In this document: positions 31,692 to 56,816 of the stretch, piece by piece
Layout: each line of letters starts with the position of its first letter
How positions within the stretch are numbered: position 1 is the first letter of the stretch
Source of the DNA: Microgenomates group bacterium
Lineage (GTDB): Bacteria; Patescibacteriota; Microgenomatia; UBA12405
Direction: 5' to 3'
Assembly: GCA_049303675.1 (NCBI GenBank)
Contig: JBAQNJ010000001.1
Location: 278,994-342,993 of the forward strand
DNA: 64,000 nucleotides
Made by a program: the position numbers and the translations under genes
Notes under the pieces: generated by a model
What the model was told of the DNA's origin: nothing
What the model saw: the letters and a program-made list of their open reading frames with translations, nothing else
The model's database searches: none

Positions 31692-32171
31692 TTGCTGGAA
31701 TTAGAGAAAAAATTGCCAAAAAACAATTTGCTAAATTATCAAATTGTTTATTTTCATCCCAAAACTTTTTTCAATAAATATATAAAAAGTTTTTGCACCC
31801 CTTCCCCCTTGTTAAAGGGGGATCGAGGGGGATTAATCATTGGTCTTGGCGATTTCTTTGGTGACATTACCAAAATCCGTCTCGAAACTATTACCCATAA
31901 TCAATATGCTCAAAACTCAATTTATCCATTTTCACCCATCAATTTAGATATTTCGCTGCCACCACTGGAAGATATTGACGAAAGAATCTTTACCGTTAGT
32001 GAACACATGGGCAAATACAATTGCAACTGGATTGTCTATTCTACCGAATTATATATCCGTCAACATGCCCCAGCCACAAAGCAATTATTTTTTCACCTGC
32101 CCCGTTCCCAAAATGCCACCATTTTAGCCTCTCAAATATACAATTTGCTCAATAATAATCAAATAATTTAG
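31692..32171 (+). CDS. Hypothetical protein (contains a REP-like repeat in frame)
   Basis: 159-aa ORF. The repeat is translated as SPLLKGDRGGL. Confidence 0.35.
   Translation: MLELEKKLPKNNLLNYQIVYFHPKTFFNKYIKSFCTPSPLLKGDRGGLIIGLGDFFGDITKIRLETITHNQYAQNSIYPFSPINLDISLPPLEDIDERIFTVSEHMGKYNCNWIVYSTELYIRQHAPATKQLFFHLPRSQNATILASQIYNLLNNNQII
31803..31834 (+). repeat. REP-like element, short form (copy A)
   Basis: TCCCCCTT-GTTA-AAGGGGGA-TCGA-GGGGGATT. Confidence 0.85.
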
Positions 32172-32175
32172 TGTT

Positions 32176-32218
32176 TTCCCCCTTTTCAAGGGGGAAGCGG
32201 CGTAGCCGAGGGGGTTTT
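32176..32218 (+). repeat. REP-like element, long two-hairpin form (copy B)
   Basis: TTCCCCCTTTTCAAGGGGGAAGCGGCGTAGCCGAGGGGGTTTT. It abuts the TGTTATAAT promoter of 32235. Confidence 0.9.
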
Positions 32219-32234
32219 GATGTTATAATTAACC

Positions 32235-32942
32235 ATGCCTCGAATCAAAGATGTTGATAATGTCGCTCCTGACGATTTAATTACTTCCCCAAAAACTAAT
32301 TTAACTATAAATACAAATCCAATTATAAAATCACCCAACAAGTTGGTCGATACAGAGACTTTAAACGACAAGGTTTACTCAATTTTTGGTCACACCAAGT
32401 CCTCATTTTCCTCTGCCCTAGTTTTCCCTCATGTCTTTAGTTTTGCCGAGCAGGACGACGATGAAAAAATTCTCGTCGCTATGCGTCCCCATTGGTTCAC
32501 CAATGTTTCTTGGATTTTCACCTCTATTTTTTTATTTCTCCTTCCTAGCCTAATCCATTTTGTTCCCCTTATCAACACCCTCCCGTGGAACTACCAGTTT
32601 GTCATTACCCTCTCTTGGTATCTAATCGCCATTGCCTACACTTTCGAGAAATTTATGGGCTGGTATTTCGATGTCTATATTATTACTGACCGTCGGGTCA
32701 TTGACATCGACTTTATCAATCTCCTTACCAAAAAATACGCCGAAGCAGATATATCCAAGATACAAGATGTCTCCTCGAAGGTTTCTGGTGTTAGCCAGAC
32801 ATTCTTCAATTATGGCTCAGTTCTCATCCAGACCGCCTCCGAAGTCAATGAATTGCACTTTGACAAAGTTGCCAATCCCGAAAAAATTGTCAAAATATTA
32901 CAGGAATTAGGCGAGTTAGAAGAATCCAAACACCATGAATAA
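32235..32942 (+). CDS. Membrane protein, possible bacterial PH (YdbT-like) domain
   Basis: Two central TM helices followed by DRRVIDIDF....ADISKIQDVS....SVLIQTA. This is a weak domain call. Confidence 0.4.
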   Translation: MPRIKDVDNVAPDDLITSPKTNLTINTNPIIKSPNKLVDTETLNDKVYSIFGHTKSSFSSALVFPHVFSFAEQDDDEKILVAMRPHWFTNVSWIFTSIFLFLLPSLIHFVPLINTLPWNYQFVITLSWYLIAIAYTFEKFMGWYFDVYIITDRRVIDIDFINLLTKKYAEADISKIQDVSSKVSGVSQTFFNYGSVLIQTASEVNELHFDKVANPEKIVKILQELGELEESKHHE

Positions 32943-33150
32943 TCTCAATCTCTATTTTTTACTGGCCCAAAAATTTTCTTTTGTTCTCGGTTCTATTATT
33001 TATCTTGTTTTTGCCCTAATTGTGGTGAAGCAAACTACTATGATGAGTAAAAACGTTATCGACAAATTCAATCCTGTTCTGATCTCCATTGCCTATCTCC
33101 ACCTCGCCTTTTCCATATTTCTCGTCTTCCTTACTTTAGTAATACTCTAA
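32935..33150 (+). CDS. Hypothetical small membrane protein
   Basis: 71 aa with two hydrophobic helices. Overlaps the upstream stop by 8 nt. Confidence 0.35.
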   Translation: MNNLNLYFLLAQKFSFVLGSIIYLVFALIVVKQTTMMSKNVIDKFNPVLISIAYLHLAFSIFLVFLTLVIL

Positions 33151-33188
33151 CAAAGATTATCCCCCTCTTTCGTCAATATAGTTTGTAC

Positions 33189-33234
33189 TTCTCCCTTTTT
33201 CAAGGGGAGATGCGGCGAAGCCGAGAGGGGTTTT
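33189..33234 (+). repeat. REP-like element, long form (copy C)
   Basis: TTCTCCCTTTTTCAAGGGGAGATGCGGCGAAGCCGAGAGGGGTTTT. It abuts the promoter/ATG of 33250. Confidence 0.9.
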
Positions 33235-33249
33235 GTAGTATCATTAATC

Positions 33250-35052
33250 ATGCACTTTATTTGTCGATCTTTCCTCGGTCAAGCACAGCCCAATTCTTGG
33301 TCTCAGTATTGGGAGAACGAACCAGAGGATCAGGCTCTCGCTGCCAATCGTGGCCATCTTTTTGCCCTGCTCAATCTTGTCGTTGATCAAAATATCCCCA
33401 CTAGCGATATCGGTCATCGGCTTATCAATGAACTCAATCAACAATATTTTTCTTCATCCCTTGATCCAATTCCCGTTTCACTGACGCAGGCTATCCAGAC
33501 AGTTGTCAATCAACCAGCCTACAACTTACTCGACATTTCTCTGACTATCGCCATTATTCACCAGTCCCAGCTCTATCTGGCTATGTACAACTCCGGTTAT
33601 GTTTTTCTCGTTCGCCAGCATCAGTTCTCTCAGCTTCTTAGCGGCACCACCTCGAAGGTCAATCTCGTCTCTGGCCTGATTGCCCCCGATGACATTATCT
33701 TTATTTGCACTCAAAATTTTTATGACAATGCTACCCTAAATGGTATCAAGAGTTACCTGTCATTAGGCAAAACAGAAGACATTGAGGAGAGCATTATGGC
33801 CGACATTTACACTTTTACCGAGCAGGCCACCCTCGCTTCCCTCCTCATCGGAATTCACCCCGATGTCGATACCCCTTCCCCTCTTCCTGACAGCCCCGAG
33901 CCTAGTTCTCCCCCAGTTTCTGAGGTTATTTCTCCTCCCGATGTCTACATTTCCCACCTCGACTCTACCGCCATCAAAAATCGTCGTTATTTCAACATCA
34001 TTATTGCCATCATTTTGATTTTAGCCCTGTCTGTCAGTGTTTTCTTTGGCAATCAGCGTAATCAAAAAAATAATTTACAAACCAAATATCAGACCCTCAA
34101 ATCAGCCTATCAGGCCAAAATGAGTAGTGCTCTAGCCACCAAAAATATCAATCTCGAAGAGGCCCAGAAGATTGCTGCCGAGGCCAAAAGTATCGCCCTC
34201 GAATTGCAGTCTCTCAAGATAAATTCAGCCGAATCATCCCAGTTATTAGCTGATGCCCTCAATATACTGTCCCAAACTGGTTCTGCCGACAGTTACTCAC
34301 CCCAAGACTACTACGACACCACCGATCTCAACTCTGCTGCGAATTATTCTCATCTTATTTCTGCCAAAAACTTTTTATATCTCCTCGATCAGACTTCAGG
34401 TCGTCTCGACCGCCTCGATCTAGCCGCCAAAAGCAAACAAAAAATTATCCAAAATGATCAACTAAAAAATGCCACCGATATCGCCGAAAATAATGGTCAA
34501 CTCTACCTCCTCATCGACAAAAAAATCTATCAAGTTAGTGGCACTTCCCTTAATTCAGTTATTGATATTCCCACCGACATTCCCGACTTCACCTCCGGCA
34601 AAATCCACTTTTGGAACAGTAGTCTCTATCTTCTTGGCACCAACATTTGGAAATTCACCCCCTCAGGCACCTCCTTTTCTCAGGCCCAAGTCTGGCTCAA
34701 GGATGGCAACAATTTACCACCCACTAGTTCCTCATTGGCCATCAATGGCCAAGTTTGGGTCTTAGCCAAGTCAGGGGATCTTTCCTCCTACACTCGGGGT
34801 ACCCGCGATGCCACCCCGCCCCATATTGCCACCAATTTATCAGCCGCCGATCACTTAGTTGTTTCTCTTGACTCAGAAATTATTTCCTTTGTCGATGGCA
34901 GTTCCGTTGTTTATATTTATCACAAATCTACCGCATCCGCCTCCAAATACAATTTTGGCAATCGTCAGATTCTTAGTACCGCTCTCGATTCTACTAACAA
35001 TCGTCTTTTAGTTCTCTGTGCCGACAAAAAAATCTACCAAATTAAATTATAG
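33250..35052 (+). CDS. Hypothetical single-pass membrane protein (globular N-domain, Pro-rich linker, TM, coiled coil, repeat-rich C-domain)
   Basis: 600 aa. PSPLPDSPEPSSPPVSEVISPP linker and TM segment YFNIIIAIILILALSVSVFF. No family recognised. Confidence 0.45.
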   Translation: MHFICRSFLGQAQPNSWSQYWENEPEDQALAANRGHLFALLNLVVDQNIPTSDIGHRLINELNQQYFSSSLDPIPVSLTQAIQTVVNQPAYNLLDISLTIAIIHQSQLYLAMYNSGYVFLVRQHQFSQLLSGTTSKVNLVSGLIAPDDIIFICTQNFYDNATLNGIKSYLSLGKTEDIEESIMADIYTFTEQATLASLLIGIHPDVDTPSPLPDSPEPSSPPVSEVISPPDVYISHLDSTAIKNRRYFNIIIAIILILALSVSVFFGNQRNQKNNLQTKYQTLKSAYQAKMSSALATKNINLEEAQKIAAEAKSIALELQSLKINSAESSQLLADALNILSQTGSADSYSPQDYYDTTDLNSAANYSHLISAKNFLYLLDQTSGRLDRLDLAAKSKQKIIQNDQLKNATDIAENNGQLYLLIDKKIYQVSGTSLNSVIDIPTDIPDFTSGKIHFWNSSLYLLGTNIWKFTPSGTSFSQAQVWLKDGNNLPPTSSSLAINGQVWVLAKSGDLSSYTRGTRDATPPHIATNLSAADHLVVSLDSEIISFVDGSSVVYIYHKSTASASKYNFGNRQILSTALDSTNNRLLVLCADKKIYQIKL

Positions 35053-35071
35053 TAGTTTTTTTGTACAACTT

Positions 35072-35080
35072 TGATATAAT
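35072..35080 (+). promoter_or_regulatory. Extended -10 promoter TGATATAAT of a leaderless gene
   Basis: TGATATAAT-TTGATT-ATG. The identical 18-mer occurs on the minus strand at 40074-40057. Confidence 0.6.
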
Positions 35081-35086
35081 TTGATT

Positions 35087-35575
35087 ATGCCAGTTGATAA
35101 AACCCATCGAGAAATATTAGACCATGCCATCAACATTGCCTATCAAAACGCCACCAAATTCACTGCTCGCCAGCCAAATAGTGACTTCGCTACCACCTCT
35201 GCAGAAATAGATAGTTCTCGGGGTAAAGCCCATTTGTCAATTGGTGTCACTCGAACACAGCAAGGGCTAGATACCGAAGTCAGTCTTCAGCCAGCAGGTA
35301 GTGGTAAAGGCAATGACTGGAGCTATCGACTTGTATCCCAAACCGTCTGGCCAGATATCTACGGTCAACTAGTTGGAACTATGGACCATTACCCAGAAAC
35401 ACAAGGCATGACTGCCTCAGAAGCATTGGAAGTTTTACAGAAGACCTCACCCATAGAAATATCTTTTCCAAGGCGAGAACAACATTCATCTGAGGAAATC
35501 AGCTTTTTTCTACTGAGGGGAGATGGCAGAAGTGTGATTGACGATCTAGCTCGAATGGTCCGACCCCGTCGATAA
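35087..35575 (+). CDS. Hypothetical protein
   Basis: Start moved from TTG 35081 to ATG 35087, 6 nt after the -10 box. Confidence 0.4.
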   Translation: MPVDKTHREILDHAINIAYQNATKFTARQPNSDFATTSAEIDSSRGKAHLSIGVTRTQQGLDTEVSLQPAGSGKGNDWSYRLVSQTVWPDIYGQLVGTMDHYPETQGMTASEALEVLQKTSPIEISFPRREQHSSEEISFFLLRGDGRSVIDDLARMVRPRR

Positions 35576-35577
35576 AA

Positions 35578-36006
35578 TTATCGTTTTTTTCTATCCAATA
35601 TTACGTCAATATATCCCGTTTTCACCCCTTCTGCTTGAGGTCTGCCCACGCCCATCATCAAAAAATACATTTTTTCTTCGCTTGCCGGCATGTCTTTTAT
35701 CCAAGCATCAGTTTTAGACATCGGTTCGATTATTTGCAAGTGGCCCACACACCTACTATCAGGATTTTCTCCTCTAGGTGTCAAATAAGTTATATTTTTT
35801 AGTGCTCGAAGTTGTTCTAGCGTCAAGCCTTCCTCTTCCCCTAACATAGTTTCAAAATTTTTTTGAGTATGTTCGGCAATTTCTTTATGAAAATCACTTG
35901 CCCTAGGTATTAGTATGAGTGCAAAAATATCCTTATTGACTGCATCCATCATTTGGGCTGAAGCTTTCAATTTCTTATAATACTCTCTAAATTTCTCGTC
36001 ATCCAT
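35578..36006 (-). CDS. Hypothetical protein
   Basis: 142 aa. TGATATAAT + 6 nt + ATG. Confidence 0.4.
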   Translation of the reverse strand: MDDEKFREYYKKLKASAQMMDAVNKDIFALILIPRASDFHKEIAEHTQKNFETMLGEEEGLTLEQLRALKNITYLTPRGENPDSRCVGHLQIIEPMSKTDAWIKDMPASEEKMYFLMMGVGRPQAEGVKTGYIDVILDRKKR

Positions 36007-36046
36007 ATCATTATTATATCAATAAAGCCCATAATATACAATGTTT

Positions 36047-36089
36047 TTCTCCCTTGTCATAGGGAGAAGCGGCTGTGCCGAGAGGGATT
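36047..36089 (+). repeat. REP-like element, long form (copy D)
   Basis: TTCTCCCTTGTCATAGGGAGAAGCGGCTGTGCCGAGAGGGATT. Confidence 0.9.
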
Positions 36090-36155
36090 GAAATATGAGA
36101 TAATCACTTAGTTTGTTTTATTCATAAATCATATTTCTTATTTCATACACCAACT

Positions 36156-36566
36156 ATGAGGTACTTCAATCGAGATTCACTCGACTACGAGTTCAAAGAC
36201 AAGTACGAAGCAGGCCTCGTCCTCACTGGTTCTGATGCCAAATCTCTCCGGACTCAGGGAGTCCTCTTCAATGGCTCCAAAATCGAGATAATTGATGGTA
36301 TTCCTACAGTTTTCAATCTGACTATCGAGCCCTACAAGTATTCCCAAAACCAATCGATCGACACCACTCGGGAACGAAAAATCTTATTATCGCAGAGGGA
36401 AATAGCCAAGTTAATTAGTCTCCGCAATCAAAAATATATGATCATCCCCATCAGTATATTTTTGAAGCACAATTGGTTCAAAATGGAAATTGGTGTCGGC
36501 CGCAAGCTCCGCAAATACGAAAAAAGAGAAAAAATCAAAGCCAAGGATTCTCTACGTCACTCCTAA
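36156..36566 (+). CDS. smpB: SsrA-binding protein SmpB
   Basis: EFKDKYEAGLVLTGSDAKSLR...RERKILLSQREIAKL...GRKLRKYEKREKIK matches the SmpB pattern. Confidence 0.85.
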   Translation: MRYFNRDSLDYEFKDKYEAGLVLTGSDAKSLRTQGVLFNGSKIEIIDGIPTVFNLTIEPYKYSQNQSIDTTRERKILLSQREIAKLISLRNQKYMIIPISIFLKHNWFKMEIGVGRKLRKYEKREKIKAKDSLRHS

Positions 36567-36567
36567 A

Positions 36568-36804
36568 CTAGCCAATTTTTCCCTTTTCTGTCTGAACTAG
36601 GGGACCAGTCACTTCCAATTTTTGTCGACCTCTTAGTACCGCAAGTTCTGATTTTTTCACTACCGTCCCAATCCTCACCTGATTATCATCAGTTCCATAG
36701 ACCACTGTATCATCACCCACAGTTTGTATTTCTTTCACCAAAATACGCCCGCTATTTGTCGGCCAGATAAATGGTTTTTCCACTATATTGTTATCATTTG
36801 ACAC
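36568..36804 (-). CDS. Hypothetical small protein
   Basis: 78-aa ORF. Confidence 0.3.
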   Translation of the reverse strand: MSNDNNIVEKPFIWPTNSGRILVKEIQTVGDDTVVYGTDDNQVRIGTVVKKSELAVLRGRQKLEVTGPLVQTEKGKIG

Positions 36805-39243: not shown

Positions 39244-39247
39244 CGCA

Positions 39248-39678
39248 GGAGGAGATGCTCGGTATTGAGCCGAGGTCCAAAGTGGACTATAAAAAACGTC
39301 TACAAGCTTAATTTACTTTATCCTACACTTTCAACAACTAAAGTAAACGAAAAGTGTTGAAATGTCGATTATTGAGGGCATTACCCCTCTCTTAAATCCA
39401 CGATCTAATCGAGAAGATCGGGACAGCATTCTAGTTTAATTTACACTAGCTAGTCTTCTCTAGAAAAGGGGACTAACTAATGGATGATTCTGTTTAGGCA
39501 AGAGCCCAAACAGGAGCCTTAGAAGCTAGAGCGCCTTTTACAGCGTTTGCAACTTTGGTTAAATCAACACCAAAAGTATTTTTGGCATGTTTGTTTTTGA
39601 CCCTGTTTAACGACTCAATGGATCAAAGTCGGCTTGCGGTTTTTTAAGGTACTCACCTTGTCGATGCAATACATCTCC
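39248..39678 (-). ncRNA. ssrA: tmRNA (SsrA), one-piece
   Basis: Minus strand. 5' GGAGATGTATTGCATCGACAAGG (compare E. coli GGGGCTGATTCTGGATTCGACGGG). 3' GGAC-CTCGG-CTCAATA-CCGAG-CATCTCC-TCC is a T-arm plus acceptor. Tag ORF GTT-GCAAACGCT... (resume codon 39550-39548, stop 39496-39494) encodes ANAVKGALASKAPVWALA. smpB lies 2.7 kb away. Confidence 0.75.
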
Positions 39679-46417: not shown

Positions 46418-46455
46418 TTTCCCCTCTTTGCTCAAAGAGGGGCTAGGGGTGATTT
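46418..46455 (+). repeat. REP-like element, variant short form (copy E)
   Basis: TTTCCCCTCTTTG-CT-CAAAGAGGGG-CTA-GGGGTGATTT. Confidence 0.7.
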
Positions 46456-46490: not shown

Positions 46491-46497
46491 TCTTAGA

Positions 46498-46565
46498 GTG
46501 TTTAGAAGACCCTTAGGGGTTGACAACCGAGTCCGCCAAATGGTCCACGGTGCCCACTAAAACAC
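46498..46565 (+). promoter_or_regulatory. Structured metK 5' leader, candidate SAM-I/IV-like riboswitch
   Basis: Closing helix GTGTTTAG...CTAAAACAC encloses ACCC-TTA-GGGT, GACAACC, CCG...CGG and GGTGCCC (compare the SAM-I/IV core GGCAACC...GGUGCC). Followed by CCTT...AAGG around the SD. Confidence 0.35.
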
Positions 46566-46589
46566 GCCTTATCAATTAAAAGGAAAAAT

Positions 46590-47690
46590 ATGAATTATCC
46601 TCAATTTTCGTCCGAATCTGTCTGTGAAGGTCACCCCGACAAAGTCTGTGACCAAATTAGTGATGCTATCTTAGACGCTGCCTATACCCTCGACCCTATG
46701 GCTCGGGTCGCTATCGAGACTTTGGCTACGGTCAACAAATTAGTTTTAGCCGGAGAAGTTACTATTAATGGTACTCTCGATTATGCCGCTATTGCCCGCC
46801 AAAAGATCGCCGAGCTCGATTTTCTCGATTCAGTTTTAGATTTTACCGACAAATGCGACATCGAAATTGCTGTCCACACACAGTCACCCGATATTGCTCA
46901 GGGCGTCAATGCTGGTGGAGCCGGTGATCAGGGGATGATGTTTGGTTATGCTTGTCGCGAGACACCCGAACTAATGCCCCTTCCCATTTCCATGGCTCAC
47001 AAATTATGCCGTCAAATGGACGAATTACAGCGCATTCATCGTTGGATGCGCCCCGATGGCAAGTCTCAGGTTACCGTTCGTTATGATGGTCAGACTCCGG
47101 TAGCCATCGAGCGAGTTGTCTTGGCCAAGCCCATGAATTACGACCTCGCCCCTGCTGATTATTCTCACTTTTTCTATCAAAATGTCATTGTTCCAGTCTT
47201 AGCTGAATACAAGTTTGAAATCAGTGAAGACAAAATGATTCTCAATGGTACCGGTAAATGGACCATTGGTGGCCCCTCCGCCGATACTGGCGTTACTGGC
47301 CGCAAAATTGTCGTTGATACTTACGGTGGTATGGGTCGTATTGGTGGTGGTTGCTTTTCCGGCAAGGATACTACCAAGGTCGATCGCAGTGCCGCCTACG
47401 CCGCTCGCTATATTGCCAAAAATATTGTGGCTGCAGGTCTCGCCGATCGCTGCGAGGTTCAATTAGCCTATGCTATTGGTCAAGTCCTGCCTGTTGGTCA
47501 ATCTATTGAGACTTTTGGCACTGCCAAGTCAGAATTAAAGGTAATCGAAGATTTTGCATGGAAATTACTCGAATTATCGGTCGCTGGTATCAACAGTGGT
47601 CTCAATCTCCGCGTGCCAATGTATGCCAAAACCGCCCGCTATGGCCACTTTGGCCATCCCGAGTATCCATGGGAGAAGATAAAAGGCTAA
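46590..47690 (+). CDS. metK: S-adenosylmethionine synthetase
   Basis: SESVCEGHPDKVCDQISDAILDA, GAGDQGMMFGYA and DTYGG motifs. Confidence 0.95.
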   Translation: MNYPQFSSESVCEGHPDKVCDQISDAILDAAYTLDPMARVAIETLATVNKLVLAGEVTINGTLDYAAIARQKIAELDFLDSVLDFTDKCDIEIAVHTQSPDIAQGVNAGGAGDQGMMFGYACRETPELMPLPISMAHKLCRQMDELQRIHRWMRPDGKSQVTVRYDGQTPVAIERVVLAKPMNYDLAPADYSHFFYQNVIVPVLAEYKFEISEDKMILNGTGKWTIGGPSADTGVTGRKIVVDTYGGMGRIGGGCFSGKDTTKVDRSAAYAARYIAKNIVAAGLADRCEVQLAYAIGQVLPVGQSIETFGTAKSELKVIEDFAWKLLELSVAGINSGLNLRVPMYAKTARYGHFGHPEYPWEKIKG

Positions 47691-48436: not shown

Positions 48437-50217
48437 TGAATAATAATCTATATAAAAATAGTACTTTCCCCCTTTTTCAAGGGGGGATTAAGGGGGGTTT
48501 TGTATTAAAAACTTTTTTTTACTTTTTACTTTTTACTTTTGTTTTTATTTTAATTTTTACTCTCCCTCTTATTTTCGGTTTTGGCAAAACCGGCAAAAAC
48601 ACTCTTGTTTTAGGCAAAGACTATTCCTTACTCTCCAAATCCCAAATAATTTCTCGCTTATCAGTCGATTTTCCTCTTCCTCCCAGCCTGAATATTCAGA
48701 CCTCAAACCGCAAATTTACTCTCAATTTAGCCGATATCTCCGCCCAATACGACTATCCCTCAATCGCATCCAATCTACTATTCCGTCGACTTCATAGTGG
48801 AGTTTTACCTTATTTTAAGGCATTTTTTCAGCCAAAAAACTTTAGCCTTAGTCTCGATTACAGCTCCGATTCACTCGATAAACAAATTGCCAATATCTCC
48901 CAGCAGGTCGATCATCCCTTTGTTCCCTCCCAATTTAGTCTCGATGAGAAATCCAAAGAAATCATCCTCAAAAACGGTGAACGGGGGCAAAGAGTCAATT
49001 CTGAAGAATTGAAAAACCGTCTCGTCTCTGCTCTTCGTTATTATGAGGCATCTACCCCTATCGACCTTCCCCTCGACCCTATTGGTGAGTTGCCCACTAC
49101 TGATCAAATTAGTAGTGCCACCGCTGTCGCTCAGTCCCTTATCGGCAAGAAGCTCGAATTTTCCGCCCCCGACGAGGTTGTCACCCTCGACGACAAGACC
49201 CTTATTTCTTGGGTCGACTTTGGGACCATTTGTCGCCGCTCCACAGTTGATGATTATGTCGCTGGACTGAAGTCTAGTCTGAAAAAGGATCCTGTCGAAG
49301 CCGTCTTCAAATTTGAAAATGGTCAAGTCCTCGAATTTCAACCATCTAAAAATGGTTATCTATTAGATGACTCCAATTTAAGCCAACAAATTTGTTCAAA
49401 AATAGTTGAACTATCCCAATCCTCGGACAAAATAATTAAGGATAAATTCCCAGTTATCACCCTCGAAACCAAGACTCAAAACTCTGATGTCAACAATTTA
49501 GGCATCAAAGAATTAATTGGCAGTGGCACCTCTACCTTCCGTCACAGTAGTACTATTCGCAATATCAATGTCGAGCGCGGCGCCCAAATAGTCAATCGCA
49601 TTTTAGTCGCCCCAGGCGAAAAGTTTTCCTTTGTCAAAGCTCTTGGCGATGTCACCATCGAAAATGGTTTCAAAATGGCTTATGTCATTCGGGCCGGCAA
49701 GACGGAATTAGACGTTGGTGGTGGTATCTGTCAGGTCTCCACCACTTTTTTCCGCGCCCTTCTCAATTCTGGGCTCGATATAATTGACAGACGCAACCAC
49801 GCCTATCGAGTCCAATACTATGAAGAAGACATGCCCCCAGGTTATGACGCCACTGTTTTTATCCCCAGTCCTGATTTATCTTTTGTCAACGACACTGGCC
49901 ATCATATCCTTATTCAAAGTAAATATGATGGTAAAAATAAACGGCTTACCTACGATCTTTATGGTACCTCCGATGGTCGATCTGTCGATATTAGCAACTA
50001 TCGCCAATGGGGAGCTGCTCCTGCTCCTCCGGCGGTCTATATTGACGATCCTACCTTACCGGCGGGCAAAGTCGTTCAGGACGAGCACGCTATTCCAGGA
50101 CTGAAGACATCTTTTGACTGGAAAGTGACCCGAGCCGGAGAGATAATCCATCAGAAAACCTTTACCAGCAATTTCGTCCCTTGGGCCGCCGTTTTCCGTC
50201 GCGGACCGCAAATTTAA
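48436..50217 (+). CDS. VanW family protein
   Basis: GGGICQVSTTFFRALLNSGL and RNHAYRVQYY VanW core; N-terminal TM anchor. Confidence 0.8.
   Translation: MNNNLYKNSTFPLFQGGIKGGFVLKTFFYFLLFTFVFILIFTLPLIFGFGKTGKNTLVLGKDYSLLSKSQIISRLSVDFPLPPSLNIQTSNRKFTLNLADISAQYDYPSIASNLLFRRLHSGVLPYFKAFFQPKNFSLSLDYSSDSLDKQIANISQQVDHPFVPSQFSLDEKSKEIILKNGERGQRVNSEELKNRLVSALRYYEASTPIDLPLDPIGELPTTDQISSATAVAQSLIGKKLEFSAPDEVVTLDDKTLISWVDFGTICRRSTVDDYVAGLKSSLKKDPVEAVFKFENGQVLEFQPSKNGYLLDDSNLSQQICSKIVELSQSSDKIIKDKFPVITLETKTQNSDVNNLGIKELIGSGTSTFRHSSTIRNINVERGAQIVNRILVAPGEKFSFVKALGDVTIENGFKMAYVIRAGKTELDVGGGICQVSTTFFRALLNSGLDIIDRRNHAYRVQYYEEDMPPGYDATVFIPSPDLSFVNDTGHHILIQSKYDGKNKRLTYDLYGTSDGRSVDISNYRQWGAAPAPPAVYIDDPTLPAGKVVQDEHAIPGLKTSFDWKVTRAGEIIHQKTFTSNFVPWAAVFRRGPQI
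48465..48501 (+). repeat. REP-like element, short form (copy F)
   Basis: TTTCCCCCTTTTTCAAGGGGGGATTAAGGGGGGTTTT. Translated as FPLFQGGIKGGF in the VanW N-terminus. Confidence 0.85.
48516..48536 (+). repeat. Tandem heptamer (TTTTTAC)x3
   Basis: Read directly. Encodes FYFLLFTF, the same peptide as at 29563-29597. Confidence 0.9.
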
Positions 50218-50652: not shown

Positions 50653-50669
50653 TTTTTGTCTATATTCTC

Positions 50670-51089: not shown

Positions 51090-51737
51090 CTATATTCTAT
51101 GTTCAGGATTGCTCTGCATTTTTCCTTTCGCCAGCCAGGGGCTGGGTCTCTTTGATCCTTTTTTATAACACTCTTTCAATTCTGTCACCAGTTCAGGTAT
51201 AAATTGCAAGTCAATTTTCTCCACTATATTTAGAGTATTAAACCAAATCATTTCCCAGCCATCATGGGCATATCCTAGGTATTTCCATTCCTGCATTTCC
51301 AGTAGGTACGCCGTCCAATCGGCCGCTTTTATTACTAGCTTTTCTCTTTCATTCAATTCTTCACCATACTTTGATGTGTCCATCTCTTCCGATATCGATG
51401 ACATCATTTCTTTATACGCCTTCTCTCCCGCCTTACTTGCCTCTTCTTTTATATTTATCTCCCAAAAACTGGCATAACTCGGACTTCCTGAGGGTATGTC
51501 TCCAATTACAATTTCCCGCCAATCATGGGTCATTGCATATCTCATCACTTTGTCAAAACTTATTTCTGGTTCGCCTAGTTTATCGACAAATAGCATGGCA
51601 AGGTAGCCCACCATATACGAATGTTCGGCAATCGATATATTCATACTCGTGGGCAGCCCCAAGGCCAAGTTCCCTCCAGTTCTTTTAATCCTATTTAAGT
51701 TTTGTAAATTTTGTACCAGTTCAAATATTTTTTTCAT
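51090..51737 (-). CDS. HD-domain phosphohydrolase (YfbR-like)
   Basis: RIKRTGG......SIAEHSYMVGYLA....HDWREIVIGDIP is the HD signature. Confidence 0.7.
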   Translation of the reverse strand: MKKIFELVQNLQNLNRIKRTGGNLALGLPTSMNISIAEHSYMVGYLAMLFVDKLGEPEISFDKVMRYAMTHDWREIVIGDIPSGSPSYASFWEINIKEEASKAGEKAYKEMMSSISEEMDTSKYGEELNEREKLVIKAADWTAYLLEMQEWKYLGYAHDGWEMIWFNTLNIVEKIDLQFIPELVTELKECYKKGSKRPSPWLAKGKMQSNPEHRI

Positions 51738-51751
51738 GACGAATTATAACT

Positions 51752-51782
51752 TTTTTGTAGGGGCGACGCTAGCCGTCGCCCT
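51752..51782 (+). repeat. GC-palindrome element, copy 1 (TTTTTGTAGGGGCG...GTCGCCCT)
   Basis: GGGCGACG-CTAGC-CGTCGCCC hairpin overlapping the tsaD stop. Shares its ends with 52345-52377. Confidence 0.7.
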
Positions 51783-52884
51783 AAAAGTTTAATCGTGGAT
51801 CACGGTCCAGAGTCTCGGGATCCGACCATTCTTTTCGCTTCGCCAATTCCCAGCCCACTCTTCCAATCATGGCCGCATTATCGGTATTTAGCCATATTTT
51901 CGCTGGCATATAAATTAGCAATTTCTTTTTTCTGGCTAGGGCTCTCAGTTTTTTTCGAAGCATCATATTGGCCAGTACCCCTCCCGAGGCCATTATAGTT
52001 TTTGGCTCATATTTATCAATCGCCAAATCAAATTTTCTAATCAAAGTATTGAATACCGACTCTTGAAATGTTGCCGCCAGACTAGCCAAATTTTTATTTT
52101 TTTCCTCTATTGACCAGTCTTTTATTTTATAATAAAAACTAGTTTTCAGTCCCGAAAAGCTATAGTCCAACACTTTTTTATCGGCGAGCGGTTTGGGTAA
52201 TTCAAACAAATTATTATTGGCGCCAGCTTGCATCGCCAGTCGCTCTATCACCGGCCCCCCAGGGTATCCCAAACCCAGTAATTTTGCCGCCTTATCCAAC
52301 GCTTCTCCCGCCGCATCATCCAACGTTTCCCCCACTACAGTATATTTTTGTAAGGGCGTACCCTTGTGGTCGCCCTTTTCCAAAAGTACAATCTTCGTAT
52401 GTCCTCCACTTACCGTCAGGCAAATAGCTGGCAGCTCTATCTCTCTCTCTGGCAATCCTTTACTATTTTTGACGAGGTTAGACAATATATGTCCCTCCAC
52501 ATGATTCACCGCCACCAATTTTTTATTATATTTTATCGCCAATTCACAGGCAGTTTTCACCCCTACTCCTAGAGCAATCGCCAGCCCCGGCCCTTTCGTC
52601 ACTGCAATTACATCAACAGACTTCATGTAATATTCCAATGTCTTTCTCTCCCTTGTCAAAGGGAGATGCCCCGAAGGGGAGAGGGATTGAGAACGTTTCA
52701 ATGCCGTCATTATCACCGGCAAAATTCTCGCTTGATGTGCTCTTTTCGCAATATCCGGTACCACCCCACCCCAATCTTTATGCAAATCAGTTTGCGAGGA
52801 AATTACATTACTTATCACTCGATCATTTTCCAGCACTGCCGCACAGGTATCATCACAGCTGGTTTCAATCGCCAATATTTTCAT
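51781..52884 (-). CDS. tsaD: tRNA N6-adenosine threonylcarbamoyltransferase TsaD
   Basis: ILAIETSCDDTCAAV, NHVEGH, SGGHT and DDAAGEALDK motifs. Carries two repeat-derived in-frame insertions. Confidence 0.92.
   Translation of the reverse strand: MKILAIETSCDDTCAAVLENDRVISNVISSQTDLHKDWGGVVPDIAKRAHQARILPVIMTALKRSQSLSPSGHLPLTRERKTLEYYMKSVDVIAVTKGPGLAIALGVGVKTACELAIKYNKKLVAVNHVEGHILSNLVKNSKGLPEREIELPAICLTVSGGHTKIVLLEKGDHKGTPLQKYTVVGETLDDAAGEALDKAAKLLGLGYPGGPVIERLAMQAGANNNLFELPKPLADKKVLDYSFSGLKTSFYYKIKDWSIEEKNKNLASLAATFQESVFNTLIRKFDLAIDKYEPKTIMASGGVLANMMLRKKLRALARKKKLLIYMPAKIWLNTDNAAMIGRVGWELAKRKEWSDPETLDRDPRLNF
52345..52377 (+). repeat. GC-palindrome element, copy 2 (inside tsaD)
   Basis: TTTTTGTAAGGGCGTACCCTTGTGGTCGCCCT. 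Translated on the minus strand as KGDHKGTPLQK. Confidence 0.7.
52643..52688 (+). repeat. REP-like element, long form (copy G, inside tsaD)
   Basis: TTTCTCTCCCTTGTCAAAGGGAGATGCCCCGAAGGGGAGAGGGATT. The second hairpin is CCCC-GAA-GGGG instead of CGGC-GTA-GCCG. Translated on the minus strand as QSLSPSGHLPLTRERK. Confidence 0.9.
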
Positions 52885-52905
52885 AATTGGGTATATTATA
52901 AATTA

Positions 52906-53466
52906 ATGAGTCGCCATCTACCCTACATATTATTATCCCTCATTTTTTTAGGGCTATCCCTCTTTGGTGTTAATTACCTCAAAAGCATAGTTGTCGTCCA
53001 GCCGGAACCGCTAGTCAACGATGTTTTTCCCATTCCAACTGCCGCTGCCACGGCAACAGCGGTCCCTACCGATATCTCTGCAACTATGACTCTCGCCCCT
53101 ACAGTGACTCCTGTTACCCAAACTCTAACTAGTGACAAATATCACTTTAGCTTAGTTTACCCATCTTTCCGTACTTTATACGAAGCAGCCGAGAATGGGG
53201 GTACCCGTTTTACCCTTTATTCTGCCTCTGGCAATATCACTCTTCACGCTGGCACCCTCTGGTCATGGACTCATCCCAGCCGTGTTTTTTCCACCGAGTT
53301 ACTCGTTTCCGGACAGCCCACCTTTGTCTACCGTGTTCCCACCCAGACAATTGTCGACTTCCAAAACGGTGGTATCAACTACACTATTCAGTGTGTCCAC
53401 AAAGACATTCCTTCAGCCGTTCTCGAGTGCGACAATATTATCTCCAGCTTCGTTCTAACTTCCTAA
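52906..53466 (+). CDS. Hypothetical secreted/anchored protein
   Basis: Start moved to MSRHLPYILLSLIFLGLSLF (TATTAT + 6 nt + ATG). The track start at 52666 runs antisense through tsaD. Confidence 0.4.
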   Translation: MSRHLPYILLSLIFLGLSLFGVNYLKSIVVVQPEPLVNDVFPIPTAAATATAVPTDISATMTLAPTVTPVTQTLTSDKYHFSLVYPSFRTLYEAAENGGTRFTLYSASGNITLHAGTLWSWTHPSRVFSTELLVSGQPTFVYRVPTQTIVDFQNGGINYTIQCVHKDIPSAVLECDNIISSFVLTS

Positions 53467-54136
53467 TCAACATATTTTTTTTGACGTATTCTCTGGTAAA
53501 TGACACCAAACTCTTTTTTCTATCAATACTCATCTCAAAATCACCAACTCTTATTTTCTCTATTATCTCCTGCCAACTTTTTATCCCTTCACCAAAAACC
53601 ATTTTTCCCTTACCGAGATACATTAGTGCATGAGCATCACTGCCAGTTATGGATATCATGTTCAGTTTTTTTGCCAGACGTACTGCCTTTCTGGTAGCCA
53701 ATTTTGTTTGGGCCACACAATAGCTTTCCATCGCGTCTAGGTCAAGTTTTTTTATTTTGCTATTCAGCGACGAGCCAAACTTGTTAAACGGGTGAGCCGC
53801 GATAGCCAACCCACCTTGTTGATGAATCAGTTCTATTGTCTCCTTAGCACTTAACTTGGCCGGAATTTCTCTCAATATGCCATAAGCTAATATATGTCCA
53901 TCTTTACTGGATATTTCACACGCCGGCACCAGCACTATCGGCAGTTTTTTGTCCCCAATTATTTTTTTTGCCCTCCGATATCCTTCTAGTGAATCATGAT
54001 CGGTAATTGCCAATATTTCAATTCCTAGCTCAATACATCTCTCCATAATTTCCTCCACCGACATCACCGAGTCATAAAACTTTTTGAAGTAGGGGAGTCT
54101 AGTTGTCCGGCTATGGCAATGTAATTCCGCAATCAT
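53438..54136 (-). CDS. PHP-domain metal-dependent phosphoesterase
   Basis: AELHCHS, ITDHDS, AHP and GSDAH motifs. Confidence 0.75.
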   Translation of the reverse strand: MIAELHCHSRTTRLPYFKKFYDSVMSVEEIMERCIELGIEILAITDHDSLEGYRRAKKIIGDKKLPIVLVPACEISSKDGHILAYGILREIPAKLSAKETIELIHQQGGLAIAAHPFNKFGSSLNSKIKKLDLDAMESYCVAQTKLATRKAVRLAKKLNMISITGSDAHALMYLGKGKMVFGEGIKSWQEIIEKIRVGDFEMSIDRKKSLVSFTREYVKKNMLIRKLERSWR

Positions 54137-54159
54137 TATGTATTATATATAATTCGAAG

Positions 54160-54191
54160 TCCCCCTTGTTAAAGGGGGATTTAGGTGGATT
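54160..54191 (+). repeat. REP-like element, short form (copy H)
   Basis: TCCCCCTTGTTAAAGGGGGATTTAGGTGGATT, 18 nt upstream of the lemA ATG. Confidence 0.85.
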
Positions 54192-54208
54192 AGGTGTTAT
54201 TATAAAGT

Positions 54209-54769
54209 ATGAACAAAACACTTATCTCTATTGTTGCCATTCTTGTTTTTCTCGGTCTGGTTCTCGCCGGAGTCTACAACAATCTTATCTCTCTAAATCA
54301 AAAAGTTGACCTTGCTTGGGCTCAGGTTGATACTCAGTATCAGCGTCGTTTTGACCTCATTCCCAATTTAGTCTCATCAGTCCAAGGCGAGATGAAACAG
54401 GAGCAGAAAATATTCTCCGACATTGCTACCGCTCGGACTCAATATTCCGGTGCTGCCTCGGTCAATGACAAAGCCACTGCCGCCACAGCCTTAGAGGGGA
54501 CTTTGGGCAGATTATTAGTTATTATGGAAAATTATCCCGTTCTAAAATCCAACGAAAATGTCACTCGACTTATGGATGAATTGGCTGGTACCGAAAATCG
54601 TATCAGTGTCGAGCGCTCTCGTTTCAACAATCAGGTTACTACCTACAACATGGTAGTAATTCGATTCCCTGGCAATCTTCTCGCTCGACTTTTTGGCTTT
54701 AGTTCACGAGCATTTTTTCAAAGTGCCAGTGGCGCCGATGTTGCCCCACGAGTGGAAATTAATCCCTAA
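54209..54769 (+). CDS. lemA: LemA family protein
   Basis: N-terminal TM plus YNNLISLNQKVDLAWAQVDTQYQRRFDLIPNLV. Confidence 0.9.
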   Translation: MNKTLISIVAILVFLGLVLAGVYNNLISLNQKVDLAWAQVDTQYQRRFDLIPNLVSSVQGEMKQEQKIFSDIATARTQYSGAASVNDKATAATALEGTLGRLLVIMENYPVLKSNENVTRLMDELAGTENRISVERSRFNNQVTTYNMVVIRFPGNLLARLFGFSSRAFFQSASGADVAPRVEINP

Positions 54770-54772
54770 TTC

Positions 54773-55615
54773 ATGAGAACAATTTGGCTTAGCTTTCTTT
54801 TCTTTATTTTTTCACTTTCGCAGGTCTTTGCTCAAAATATTCCCAATCCCACGAGCTATGTTAATGATTACGCCAATGTTTTATCTGATCAGTTTGAAGC
54901 CCAATTAGACCAGCAAATATCCGATTTTCAAAAGAAAACTTCTATTGAAATCGCAGTAGTCACGGTTGCCTCCCTCGATGGCACCACTGTCGATGATTAT
55001 GCGGTCAAGTTGTTTGAGAAATGGGGCATTGGTCAGGCCAAAAAAGATAATGGCTTATTATTTCTAATTGCCCCAAATGAAAAAAAAGTCCGCCTTGAAG
55101 TCGGTTATGGCTTGGAAGGCACTATCACCGATGGTCGTGCTGGAAATATTCTGGACACTCAGGTACTGCCAGAATTCAAAAAAAATGATTATGAAGCCGG
55201 AGTCAAAAACGGTGTCGATGTGCTAATTTCTTACCTCAATGATCCTTCCTCTATCCCCGCCACCACTTCTGATTTACCATCAGAGTCTACCATCACTTGG
55301 CTAATGATAATTTTATTTTCCGGTCTGCCAATTTATTTTCTGTCCTATCTTAGCCGCTCTCGGGAAATCACTACTGGCGCTATTGTCGGAGGTCTTATTG
55401 GTTACTTAATATACGGCTTTATTTTTGCCATTATTTTGGGTATTTTTGGACTAATACTTGACCTAATTCTCTCTCGCAATTACAAAAAATTTACCTCGAT
55501 GGGACTATCGACTAGTTTTTGGAAAAGTCGTGGTGGTTTTGGCGGTGGGGGAGGTGGATTTGGAGGTTTTGGTGGAGGGGGTAGTGGCGGCGGCGGCTCG
55601 TCGAGAGGTTGGTAG
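54773..55615 (+). CDS. TPM-domain (YgcG-like) protein with Gly-rich C-terminal tail
   Basis: YVNDYANVLS...IAVVTV...GLLFLIA...VRLEVGYGLEG is a TPM domain. It is followed by TM helices and a GGFGGGGGGFGGFGGGGSGGGG tail. The LemA-TPM pairing is typical. Confidence 0.8.
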   Translation: MRTIWLSFLFFIFSLSQVFAQNIPNPTSYVNDYANVLSDQFEAQLDQQISDFQKKTSIEIAVVTVASLDGTTVDDYAVKLFEKWGIGQAKKDNGLLFLIAPNEKKVRLEVGYGLEGTITDGRAGNILDTQVLPEFKKNDYEAGVKNGVDVLISYLNDPSSIPATTSDLPSESTITWLMIILFSGLPIYFLSYLSRSREITTGAIVGGLIGYLIYGFIFAIILGIFGLILDLILSRNYKKFTSMGLSTSFWKSRGGFGGGGGGFGGFGGGGSGGGGSSRGW

Positions 55616-55727
55616 CGCTAGTGTCATTCCCGCGCCGTGTCAGTCTGTAGCTTTAGCGTAGGATGATAGGTGGGAATCTATTAAATTTATTTGTCCTATT
55701 CATAAATCTTAAATCGTATATCTTAAA

Positions 55728-56816
55728 TCAAAAATTTATCTCCCGTGTCGTCTCATCCACATAGCTAAAATTAATCGGTATATAGTTAGTTATTTTTTTT
55801 AATTTATTTAGGTATTCTTCACCCATATTTTCCGGCCACTCAATACAGGCAACTAGCTCTGAGCTTGTCGAAGGGAATTGTTCCAAAAATTTTATTTCCT
55901 CAAATTCATATTTATTTCCCAATCTATACAAATCAAAATGTAAAAATTTCTTGCACTGATAACTGTTCACTGATAACTGTTCACTGATTAAATATTCATT
56001 ATAAATTACAAACGTCGGGCTAGTTATTTTTTCCTTTACCCCGAGTAGTTGTCCTATCTTTCGGGAAAATACAGTCTTTCCACAACCTAGGTCTCCGCTC
56101 AATCCAAACACTAGAGGTTTTCTCTCCCTTGTTAAAGGGAGAAGCGGCGTAGCCGAGAGGGATTTGTTCAACAAAAATTCAGCAATTTTCTCCGTTTCCT
56201 TTTCCGATTTAGAAATTAGTGTTTGGGATTTCCCCACTATCAAGTCTCCCCGTCTGAGGATTTTTATCTCCGGTTCAGTGGCGTCAATTACTGTCGATGG
56301 TTTGTTCCGTGGTAATTTACCACTGTCCACCATCATATCGATCATCATCAATTTTTTCTGGGACAGAGTTTTTACAAAGCTTGCCAGTGAATAGTGGGGA
56401 GTCCGTCCCGACAGATTCGCTGACGTCGCCGTCACTGGCCCTCCCACCGCCTTCACCAGATCCATTATCCATTGGTTATCCGGTATTCGTATTCCCAATG
56501 TCCCATTTTCCGCCTCTATACCCTTGGCCACCTTATGTTTGCCCTCCGACACAATCGTAAAAGGTCCGGGTAGCAAGTTTGCATAAATATTTTCTGCATT
56601 TTCACTCAGTTTTACAAAATCTTGTGCCATTTTTTTATCTGCTACAGCTATCGATATCGCCTTCCCCGTCCATCTGTTTTTAAATGCGAGAAGTTTATCT
56701 GTTGCGCTCTGGCTTCTCGGATCTACCGCCAAAATGTACACCGTATCACTCGGGAATATTACTAGCCCACCATCTTTTATTATTCTGGCCGCCTTTTCAA
56801 TATCCTCGACTTTCAT
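55728..56816 (-). CDS. Fusion of a Sua5/YrdC (TsaC) domain and TsaE
   Basis: N-terminal half: FPSDTVYILAVD, LPGPFT, TATSANLSG, STVID, ILRRG (YrdC fold). C-terminal half: GDLGCGKTVFSRKIG, SPTF, HFDLYRL, IEWPE (TsaE). Confidence 0.8.
   Translation of the reverse strand: MKVEDIEKAARIIKDGGLVIFPSDTVYILAVDPRSQSATDKLLAFKNRWTGKAISIAVADKKMAQDFVKLSENAENIYANLLPGPFTIVSEGKHKVAKGIEAENGTLGIRIPDNQWIMDLVKAVGGPVTATSANLSGRTPHYSLASFVKTLSQKKLMMIDMMVDSGKLPRNKPSTVIDATEPEIKILRRGDLIVGKSQTLISKSEKETEKIAEFLLNKSLSATPLLPLTRERKPLVFGLSGDLGCGKTVFSRKIGQLLGVKEKITSPTFVIYNEYLISEQLSVNSYQCKKFLHFDLYRLGNKYEFEEIKFLEQFPSTSSELVACIEWPENMGEEYLNKLKKITNYIPINFSYVDETTREINF
55955..55989 (+). repeat. Tandem heptamer array ACTGATA ACTGTTC ACTGATA ACTGTTC ACTGATT
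   Basis: Read directly. Lies inside the TsaE module, translated as ISEQLSVNSYQ. Confidence 0.85.
56118..56165 (+). repeat. REP-like element, long form (copy I, inside the TsaE module)
   Basis: TTTCTCTCCCTTGTTAAAGGGAGAAGCGGCGTAGCCGAGAGGGATTT. Translated on the minus strand as SLSATPLLPLTRERKP just before the P-loop strand. Confidence 0.9.

Follow-up and report, generated by a model that had tools for sequence, protein, structure and literature searches.

In a purine-motif triple helix, the third strand runs antiparallel to the duplex's purine strand. The biological role of DNA triple helices in cells is a long-standing question, on which the repeats of Escherichia coli have yielded abundance and in vitro folding only. 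The repeat described there as BoxC, as the PIT element (Maher's group; Hoyne & Maher 2000) and as TMECO (Holder et al. 2015) reads CCCTCGCCCC-TTT-GGGGAGAGGG-TTA-GGGTGAGGGG, and its isolated DNA strand forms a very stable triplex by circular dichroism and nuclear magnetic resonance, with a melting temperature of 70–82°C (PMC4666352). PIT elements block DNA polymerase in vitro, are associated with local genome instability and have neither promoter nor terminator activity in E. coli; five inverted TMECO pairs with short spacers and no gene between them occur in that species, and purine-motif triplexes are stated to be absent in RNA (PMC4666352). Here we describe a repeat family of this kind in a 64,000-nt stretch of DNA from a Microgenomates group bacterium (GenBank assembly GCA_049303675.1, contig JBAQNJ010000001.1, positions 278,994 to 342,993; hereafter the window), in which it is present in nine copies.

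Like BoxC/PIT/TMECO, the family combines a pyrimidine arm (Y), a loop, a purine arm (R), a linker and a mirrored G/A/T arm (R′), in this order on one strand; it is multi-copy, highly conserved and strain-variable, and sometimes forms inverted pairs, and one TMECO copy of E. coli K-12 adjoins a DUF559 gene, as do copies of this family. Unlike TMECO, it has arms of the type TCTCCCTT-GTCA-AAGGGAGA-TTT-AGAGGGATT, is hosted by Patescibacteria and by metagenome-assembled genomes (MAGs) labelled Ignavibacteria, and has a long form with a self-paired linker of 11–21 nt; the window arms (TCTCCCTT, TCCCCCTT or CCCCTCTTT) do not match the TMECO pattern CCCTCNCCC-N3–6-GGGNGAGGG-N3-GGGNGAGGG. The fold is supported by biophysics in TMECO and by covariation over many arm variants here. 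H-DNA likewise is a homopurine mirror repeat with the same base triples, but it arises from a contiguous duplex mirror repeat under supercoiling, whereas here the duplex would come from an inverted repeat on the same strand, so that a single strand suffices.

Judged by its sequence, the element is a putative member of the class II intrastrand purine-motif triplex motifs, to which BoxC/PIT/TMECO belongs, and the family is a Patescibacteria variant of the intrastrand triplex repeats, with a hairpin-linker form, intragenic copies and strand polarity. Our literature search found nothing that links intrastrand triplex motifs to bacteria of the candidate phyla radiation (CPR). We consider it probable, although far from certain, that the nine copies represent a dispersed selfish DNA repeat family whose top strand would form a triplex, would act when single-stranded and would be mobilized by a DUF559 nuclease.

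The nine copies and their mirrored third arm

The copies are given below as Y / loop / R / linker / R′, with their covariance model scores.

31803 to 31834, + strand: short form, Y TCCCCCTT (31803–31810), GTTA, R AAGGGGGA (31815–31822), TCG, third arm AGGGGGATT (31826–31834); 32.4 bits; in frame inside a pcp-like (pyrrolidone-carboxylate-peptidase-like) gene
32177 to 32218, + strand: long form, TCCCCCTT / TTC / AAGGGGGA / AG-CGGC-GTA-GCCG linker hairpin / AGGGGGTTTT; 48.7 bits; intergenic, between the pcp-like gene and a bPH_2 gene
33190 to 33234, + strand: long form, TCTCCCTTT / TTC / AAGGGGAGA (one T·G) / TG-CGGC-GAA-GCCG / AGAGGGGTTTT; 54.4 bits; intergenic, upstream of a 600-aa open reading frame (ORF)
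36048 to 36089, + strand: long form, TCTCCCTT / GTCA / TAGGGAGA / AG-CGGC-TGT-GCCG / AGAGGGATT; 65.1 bits; divergent intergenic region between the start of a − strand gene (36006) and the start of smpB (36156)
46421 to 46455, + strand: short form with permuted arms, CCCCTCTTT / GCTC / AAAGAGGGG / CTA / GGGGTGATTT (T opposite A); 7.5 bits; a perfect 9-triad motif; a small + strand ORF on one side and the SAM-I/IV riboswitch of metK on the other
48467 to 48501, + strand: short form, TCCCCCTT / TTTC / AAGGGGGGA / TTA / AGGGGGGTTTT; 19.9 bits; codons 10–23 of a VanW-domain gene
52647 to 52688, + strand: long form, TCTCCCTT / GTCA / AAGGGAGA / TG-CCCC-GAA-GGGG / AGAGGGATT; 68.7 bits; antisense and in frame inside tsaD, where it reads QSLSPSGHLPLTRERK
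54160 to 54191, + strand: short form, TCCCCCTT / GTTA / AAGGGGGA / TTT / AGGTGGATT (one mismatched triad); 26.2 bits; divergent intergenic region between a PHP gene (−) and lemA (+)
56123 to 56165, + strand: long form, TCTCCCTT / GTTA / AAGGGAGA / AG-CGGC-GTA-GCCG / AGAGGGATTT; 74 bits; antisense and in frame in the TsaE half of a tsaC-tsaE fusion, where it reads SLSATPLLPLTRERKP

The G-rich segment 3′ of hairpin 1 (after hairpin 2 in the long forms) is the mirror image of the purine arm of hairpin 1, with A or T opposite A. This is seen in TCTCCCTT/AAGGGAGA/AGAGGGAT, TCCCCCTT/AAGGGGGA/AGGGGGAT and TCTCCCCT/AGGGGAGA/AGAGGGGT, when the window copies are set beside about 60 full copies that were obtained by scanning one genome per species. 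Over 61 low-GC loci, the covariance model gave 128 matches with many further arm types, each of which then has its own mirror: AGGGAGG is followed by GGAGGGT or GGTGGGT, AAGAGGGGG by GGGGGAGAT, AAGGAGGGG by GGGGTGGAT and AAAGAGGGA by AGGGAGATT. The window copy at 46421 obeys the same rule (AAAGAGGGG followed by GGGGTGATT). When mirrored and direct R arms were compared for their fit to the downstream sequence of 87 unique elements, the mirror was superior in 70 elements and inferior in 2; the 15 ties mostly involve symmetric arms. For 37 distinct R arms, the downstream sequence of the same element mirrors 91% of the arm, compared with 73% under a direct-repeat model and with a mean of 70% (maximum 77%; 1000 permutations) when downstream sequences were swapped between arm types. 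Of the 35 asymmetric arm variants in a sample of about 100 copies taken from other genomes, 20 have a mirror over their full length. The triads C-G·G, T-A·A and T-A·T account for 823 of the 862 (95%) aligned in 101 unique elements.

A T of the third arm that stands opposite an A-T pair is compatible with the purine motif alone. A mirror repeat originates neither by duplication nor by inversion and has no Watson-Crick pairing; the known structure that demands it is the purine-motif triple helix. Dozens of arm variants in which three strands are matched triad by triad constitute comparative evidence of selection on the fold. The sequence-only reading of this stretch had called the copies two-hairpin and REP-like (repetitive extragenic palindromic), a label that misses the mirrored third arm co-varying as base triples and that fails in two further respects, as there is no GTAG foot and the partner gene found in related genomes is not of the RAYT type (REP-associated tyrosine transposase).

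All nine copies (9/9) have the block order of the ITxF definition from PMC4666352 (5′ pyrimidine arm, purine arm and 3′ reverse-Hoogsteen arm, on one strand), and under its triad rule (at most one mismatch) eight are perfect and the copy at 54160 has one mismatch. The short forms (31803, 46421, 48467 and 54160) also fit the ITxF sizes (stem 6–15, loops 1–6 nt), with stems of 8–9, a first loop of 4 nt and a second loop of 3 nt. The long forms exceed the limit on the second loop (1–6 nt), their linker being 13 nt in the window and 11–21 nt (rarely more) in other genomes; a search with loops capped in this way is therefore escaped by the long form.

Linkers measure 2–3 nt in the short form and 11–21 nt in the long form, where they fold as a hairpin of 3–8 bp. 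The covariation in hairpin 2 that had been noticed in the window (CGGC/GCCG vs CCCC/GGGG) is correct and generalizes across genomes to 18 different stems, all perfectly complementary and most of them capped by GNA loops, which also include GTCC/GGAC, GTCAC/GTGAC and GTCCCGA/TCGGGAC; the mean stem length is 4.25, vs 2.43 in shuffles. Hairpin 2 is a structured linker between the second and third arms.

The inventory made from the sequence alone proved accurate: the nine copies read as described, in long and short forms, all (9/9) on the + strand, with none at 1–31.8 kb or 56.2–64 kb. Their density is uneven, with nine copies in 24 kb and none in the remaining 40 kb of the window, and nine random points would fall within so short a span with P = 0.0026. 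The long-form core GGGRGAWGCSSCNNNGSSGAGRGGG occurs five times, always on the + strand, with 0 occurrences expected (100 shuffles). The covariance model was built from copies in other genomes, using a length-uniform subset of long forms because a MAFFT alignment of all long forms misplaced hairpin 1 (unequal loop lengths). It matched eight copies, all on the + strand, with E-values from 5e-5 (at 48463, the weakest) to 3e-24, and otherwise found nothing significant in the 64-kb window, bar reverse-strand echoes of the palindromic hairpin 1. The copy first placed at 46418 (46421 in the list) scored just 7.5 bits, the reason being its permuted arms (CCCCTCTTT/AAAGAGGGG/GGGGTGATT); by its architecture it is a true family member. 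A family-agnostic finder (pyrimidine arm, loop 3–8, complementary purine arm, linker 2–24 and mirrored third arm; at least 8 triads and at most one mismatch) returned eight copies on the + strand with perfect triads only and exactly the nine with one mismatch allowed; it returned zero on the − strand of the window and zero in reversed-sequence controls. At gathering score, no Rfam family matched the element in the window, and a permissive threshold gave only noise with E > 1, at 52560–52780.

Pairing between the 5′ arm and the 3′ segment by Watson-Crick rules, as in a switch or attenuator, was rejected because its direct-repeat prediction fits worse than the mirror. A G-quadruplex was rejected because common variants have two G3 runs only. 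A CRISPR-like origin, prompted by ATTGAAAT tails, was also rejected, the short contigs of one MAG carrying single copies in ordinary genes and no arrays. Some copies (at L020, L031, L071 and L083, all of one unclassified MAG, and at positions 33150–33170 and 31793–31802 of the window) are preceded by an additional pyrimidine tract that complements the third arm, as AATCCCCCTTTG does in front of TCCCCCTTT; such tracts could form an alternative outer Watson-Crick stem or be remnants of inverted pairs.

Copies inside genes and strand polarity

Four window copies lie in ORFs and remain in frame, in tsaD, the tsaC-tsaE fusion, the pcp-like gene and the VanW gene; this earlier observation is supported by orthologs that lack the insert or carry other inserts. 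In tsaD (51781–52884, −), the insert splits the Pfam match and is situated in a loop, and orthologs of 340–345 aa are without it. Across 28 TsaD orthologs, which range from 340 to 424 aa, element-like peptides occur at the C-terminus and at two hot spots, which follow residues 65 and 175 approximately; these peptides are translations of the element in various frames and orientations (SLSASPLLPLTRE, PPLTPPLRKGGE, NPSALRAAPLDKGA and SPLTKGEAKTQSPPTPSLTRGG). One Shapirobacteria tsaD has three tandem copies at the second hot spot, with three more in the tsaC-tsaE fusion of the same genome, and the locus of a 340-aa TsaD ortholog has zero element copies. In the fusion of the window, 125 positions of the TsaE profile are stretched over 156 residues. 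Compared with ten homologs, the pcp-like gene carries an insert of 10 aa, and the VanW copy occupies codons 10–23, in the N-terminal tail of a 593-aa product as called in the public record. On both strands most frames of the element are open, so that its in-frame survival in tolerant loops is expected.

Two of these genes have features of their own. The tsaC-tsaE gene (55728–56816, −) combines TsaC (Sua5/YciO/YrdC) and TsaE in one 362-aa protein, and a related Shapirobacteria tsaC-tsaE (L102, 911–2188) encodes 425 aa with three repeat copies. In the pcp-like gene (about 31636–32171, +), the homologous N-terminus VLIYAFSNQWGTNISRR extends upstream of the first ATG, GTG or TTG, the usual start codon position reads GTA and the NCBI product is 152 aa, which points to a putative non-canonical start or a lost start codon.

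Rickettsia palindromic elements are selfish palindromes found in frame within genes, including essential ones, where they add short peptides in tolerant loops; they too have several open frames on both strands. The likeness to the present family, which is inserted in frame in genes whose orthologs lack the insert (tsaD, tsaC-tsaE and pcp-like), is one of behavior only. Unlike this family, the Rickettsia elements are about 100–150 bp long and restricted to Rickettsia, and we know of no triplex architecture and no associated nuclease gene in them. In-frame insertions remodel essential proteins of the genome-reduced CPR bacteria, which matters for the annotation and alignment of CPR proteins.

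The orientation of the copies follows the composition of the DNA strand. In 8-kb loci from many genomes (|skew| > 0.1), the Y-R-R′ strand is the locally C-rich strand in 68 copies vs 10 (P ~ 1e-11); by locus, all copies are on the C-rich strand in 39, all on the G-rich strand in 7, and mixed in 9. Placement on the C-rich strand holds for 9/9 copies in the window and 7/7 in the Shapirobacteria locus, and in four of the ten exceptions the copy belongs to an inverted pair around a DUF559 gene, of which it forms one arm. Of 109 copies, 37 are located well within long ORFs (200 codons or more), 18 in sense and 19 in antisense orientation. As orientation tracks the C-rich DNA strand and not transcription, the polarity is tied to DNA, which points to a DNA-level element, with the fold linked to the DNA strand rather than to transcripts. 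The bias may reflect insertion into a single-stranded template, or the loss of copies whose stable fold sits there.

Base composition in the window is 40% G+C, with 15,374 C vs 10,275 G on the + strand, and GC skew is below zero in every 4-kb interval, at about −0.2 (down to −0.36) whatever the gene direction. The 16S rRNA gene (24120–25618, +) is thus on the C-rich strand. This fits the G/C disparity reported for UBA1400 Microgenomates, which extends over the whole chromosome, with the rRNA-bearing strand C-rich and the cause unexplained (Kadnikov et al., PMC7143001). A test of orientation against replication direction is complicated by this whole-chromosome disparity of the clade (PMC7143001) and by the single polarity of the window.

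An outward promoter, which the sequence-only reading had proposed that the element might carry or recruit, did not hold up as a general property, since -10-like hexamers lie at no fixed spacing on either side of 109 copies and show a mild excess only in the first 20 nt downstream. The similarity of the copies at 32176 and 33189 through GGGGTTTTG, which had been taken as a sign of a promoter, is the third arm and T-tail of a common variant, and the same tail recurs in many genomes. On the bottom strand, the conserved loop of hairpin 1 is TTGACA-like (ATGACA, TTGAAA, TTAACA), the complement of a GTCA loop giving TTGACA. Loop-derived sites of this type at 36033–36060, 33175–33203 and 54136–54179 (all −) are 16–18 nt from TATATT or TATTAT boxes, and promoter-like matches adjoin the − strand genes starting at 36006 and 54136 (next to the copies at 36048 and 54160); these may be local exaptations. 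The + strand genes at 32235, 33250 and 54209 have a -10-like box just 5–7 nt before the ATG, a spacing that suggests putative leaderless mRNAs.

DUF559 genes between inverted copies

In related genomes, loci with two opposite copies 420–520 bp apart contain one small ORF between them, which is a DUF559 gene (PF04480, E-values 1e-21 to 1e-28). Each of the eight DUF559 genes in element-seeded loci (8/8) is accompanied by elements no more than about 130 nt away, on both sides in seven cases, and the two flanking copies are near-identical terminal inverted repeats. Loci labelled Shapirobacteria and loci labelled Ignavibacteria both show this. L005, L041, L056, L066, L073, L074 and L086 are among the flanked loci. 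An independent test applied the family-agnostic finder to 80 metagenome loci (L104–L183) that were picked by DUF559 protein similarity alone (41–62% identity). These contain 127 triplex motifs vs 2 in reversed controls, at a density of 2.48/kb within 300 nt of the DUF559 gene and 0.10/kb beyond (25-fold); 41/56 loci with full flanks have at least one motif and 20/56 have motifs on both sides. The arms at these loci are very diverse, and the E. coli TMECO pattern is among them (L130, L139). In E. coli K-12, TMECO no. 9 (Holder Table 1) is located about 165 nt downstream of the DUF559 gene ycjD, on the same strand, an arrangement with a chance of about 0.004.

6205 to 6240 and 6408 to 6761 of locus L184: E. 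coli K-12 ycjD/TMECO

The paper on the TMECO repeats makes no mention of ycjD, DUF559 or an endonuclease (PMC4666352), and among the listed papers naming DUF559 (22 of 25) no title or abstract concerns repeats or triplexes; the association of DUF559 with triplex repeats is apparently unreported. It bears on the earlier suggestion of a partner protein, which stands in so far as DUF559 lies between inverted copies in related genomes; the RAYT type then suggested was absent among the window proteins examined. The position of DUF559 between inverted copies (in CPR bacteria, Ignavibacteria-labelled MAGs and metagenomes) and beside the repeat at E. coli ycjD provides a testable hypothesis for a protein family without a function and for an orphan repeat class.

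We propose that the top strand would fold back twice, the Y and R arms forming a hairpin along which R′ would then lie antiparallel to R, with G·G-C, A·A-T and T·A-T triples. Since this type of triplex is reported in DNA and not in RNA, and orientation goes with the DNA strand, the element would act not as RNA but as single-stranded DNA, presumably exposed at replication or repair. Gain and loss of copies are seen at orthologous sites, and in coding regions copies would be kept only if in frame in tolerant surface loops. The solitary copies of the window would represent single ends of a composite unit, in which a DUF559 gene of about 0.5 kb (Vsr-like PD-(D/E)xK) lies between two inverted copies. 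The nuclease would mobilize or process the copies by a trans action on their folded or mismatched structure, in parallel to RAYT and REP.

A broader version of this proposal is tentative, and we think it more likely wrong than right. DUF559 might be the missing partner of intrastrand-triplex repeats across bacteria, including BoxC/PIT/TMECO, an orphan for 30 years, and the gene with its inverted triplex ends a new class of minimal mobile unit. The enzyme would recognize the folded single-stranded triplex, possibly via a conserved mismatch as Vsr does T:G, and strand-specific action at the fork would explain the one-way solitary copies in single-polarity Microgenomates chromosomes. The covariation would then be the first evolutionary proof of a selected DNA triple helix.

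Competing explanations and neighboring features

Several findings weigh against a selfish triplex repeat mobilized by DUF559. There are 14 T·G·G triads, a wobble friendlier to RNA than to DNA, and the C-rich strand, normally the lagging strand, here carries the 16S rRNA gene. To our knowledge, a lone PD-(D/E)xK nuclease is no known transposase, and neither a target-site duplication nor an excision footprint has been established. Set beside a miniature inverted-repeat transposable element, which has two terminal inverted repeats and a target-site duplication and derives from an autonomous element, a solitary copy represents just one of the two terminal inverted repeats of the DUF559 unit, and the A/T-rich ends of the unit are ambiguous with regard to target-site duplications. 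The window contains no DUF559 gene, so that the nuclease link for the source genome is drawn from relatives; moreover, none of the best 120 DUF559 homologs is on the 998-kb contig JBAQFH010000001.1 of a Microgenomates/Shapirobacteria-type MAG (GCA_049287145.1), in which the window lies reversed at about 118–182 kb. The adjacency could also result from homing of the gene into pre-existing repeats. TMECO is reported to be always intergenic and without strand bias, whereas this family has 4/9 window copies and 37/109 copies overall in ORFs and a 68:10 bias, and in vivo dimethyl sulfate footprinting of E. coli TMECO gave no stable triplex (PMC4666352).

Homing is the core of the alternative in which the repeats are targets or landing pads: a homing-endonuclease-like DUF559 would cut a repeat or an inverted pair and be copied in by repair, and the repeats would spread otherwise, by replication slippage or template switching at the fold. 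The DUF559 genes do lie exactly between inverted copies, and the DUF559 motif E-x-D-G-x-x-H...D is one that we take to be akin to those of Vsr-like homing nucleases. E. coli also has its five gene-less inverted TMECO pairs with short spacers (PMC4666352). We nevertheless regard this alternative as unlikely, as it offers no mechanism for solitary copies at many unrelated sites, coding loops included, and there are near-identical copies in unrelated contexts of one genome. The polarity of the copies would also suit a host-selected chromosomal signal, a single-strand structure labelling one DNA strand for the priming or ending of replication, for segregation, for recombination or for DNA uptake, on the logic of KOPS, Chi, ssi or uptake sequences: 87% of copies are on one compositional strand in many genomes, the fold itself is under selection, and the clade has an unusual whole-chromosome strand asymmetry (PMC7143001). 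Such a signal is improbable for a repeat that is clustered and sparse (nine copies in 24 kb, none in the other 40 kb), whose presence differs between orthologous genes, which disrupts essential genes and whose copies serve as the terminal inverted repeats of a nuclease gene.

A repeat of the REP/RAYT type, with two independent stem-loops that a Y1 HUH transposase, its gene located elsewhere in the genome, recognizes as single-stranded DNA, would account for dispersed short palindromic repeats with strand polarity and for the compensatory changes in both hairpins, and REPs likewise flank their own mobilizing gene. The likeness to REP, to bacterial interspersed mosaic elements and to REPtrons extends to short, structured, solitary repeats, a small nuclease-type gene between inverted copies, polarity by DNA strand and presumed recognition of single-stranded DNA. 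We consider this origin very improbable, however, as it leaves the mirrored third arm and the triple covariation unexplained. REP is a simple imperfect palindrome with a GTAG foot, whereas the present element has a hairpin and a third strand and no GTAG-type foot conserved at either end, its 5′ flanks varying (AAAG, TTAG, TTTC and others). The copies are not confined to extragenic DNA, one third being intragenic, and the gene between inverted copies encodes the DUF559 PD-(D/E)xK nuclease where a REPtron has the Y1 HUH transposase, none of which was found among the window proteins examined. Least probable, in our view, is a module acting at the RNA level, as a terminator, attenuator or carrier of an outward promoter for adjacent + strand genes. 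Three intergenic copies do end just before -10-like boxes and start codons, and T-rich tails follow the G-rich arm; in addition, TTGACA, the complement of the loop GTCA, yields promoter-like matches in front of the − strand genes that start at 36006 and 54136. Against this, orientation does not depend on transcription, two copies of the window lie antisense within genes, spacing to -10-like hexamers is not fixed, and no Rfam family matches; PIT elements are also without promoter or terminator activity in E. coli, and purine-motif triplexes are reported not to form in RNA (PMC4666352).

Canonical copies also occur on low-GC contigs labelled "uncultured Gammaproteobacteria," "Pseudomonadales" or "Methanoperedens" (L008, L011, L015, L026, L029, L039, L040, L043, L047, L073 and others); this reflects either errors of labelling or binning or a passage of the family between phyla. 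Its presence on Ignavibacteria-labelled contigs of 0.3–1.5 Mb suggests that at least some of the spread is real. A phage vector was rejected, the sole pattern match on a viral contig being a G+C-rich chance match that the covariance model does not recognize.

Some of the genes near the copies deserve mention. The SAM-I/IV riboswitch (46493–46599, +; score exactly at the Rfam gathering threshold) is upstream of metK (46590–47690) and begins 38 nt past the copy at 46421–46455. The smpB gene (36156–36566, +), with a repeat just upstream, and the tmRNA gene (39247–39678, −) are 2.7 kb apart on opposite strands. The 16S rRNA gene is unaccompanied by a 23S or 5S rRNA gene within the window, and 3′ of it, at 25727, there is a perfect bidirectional hairpin, TCCCCC-AGTAAT-GGGGGA, with T runs.

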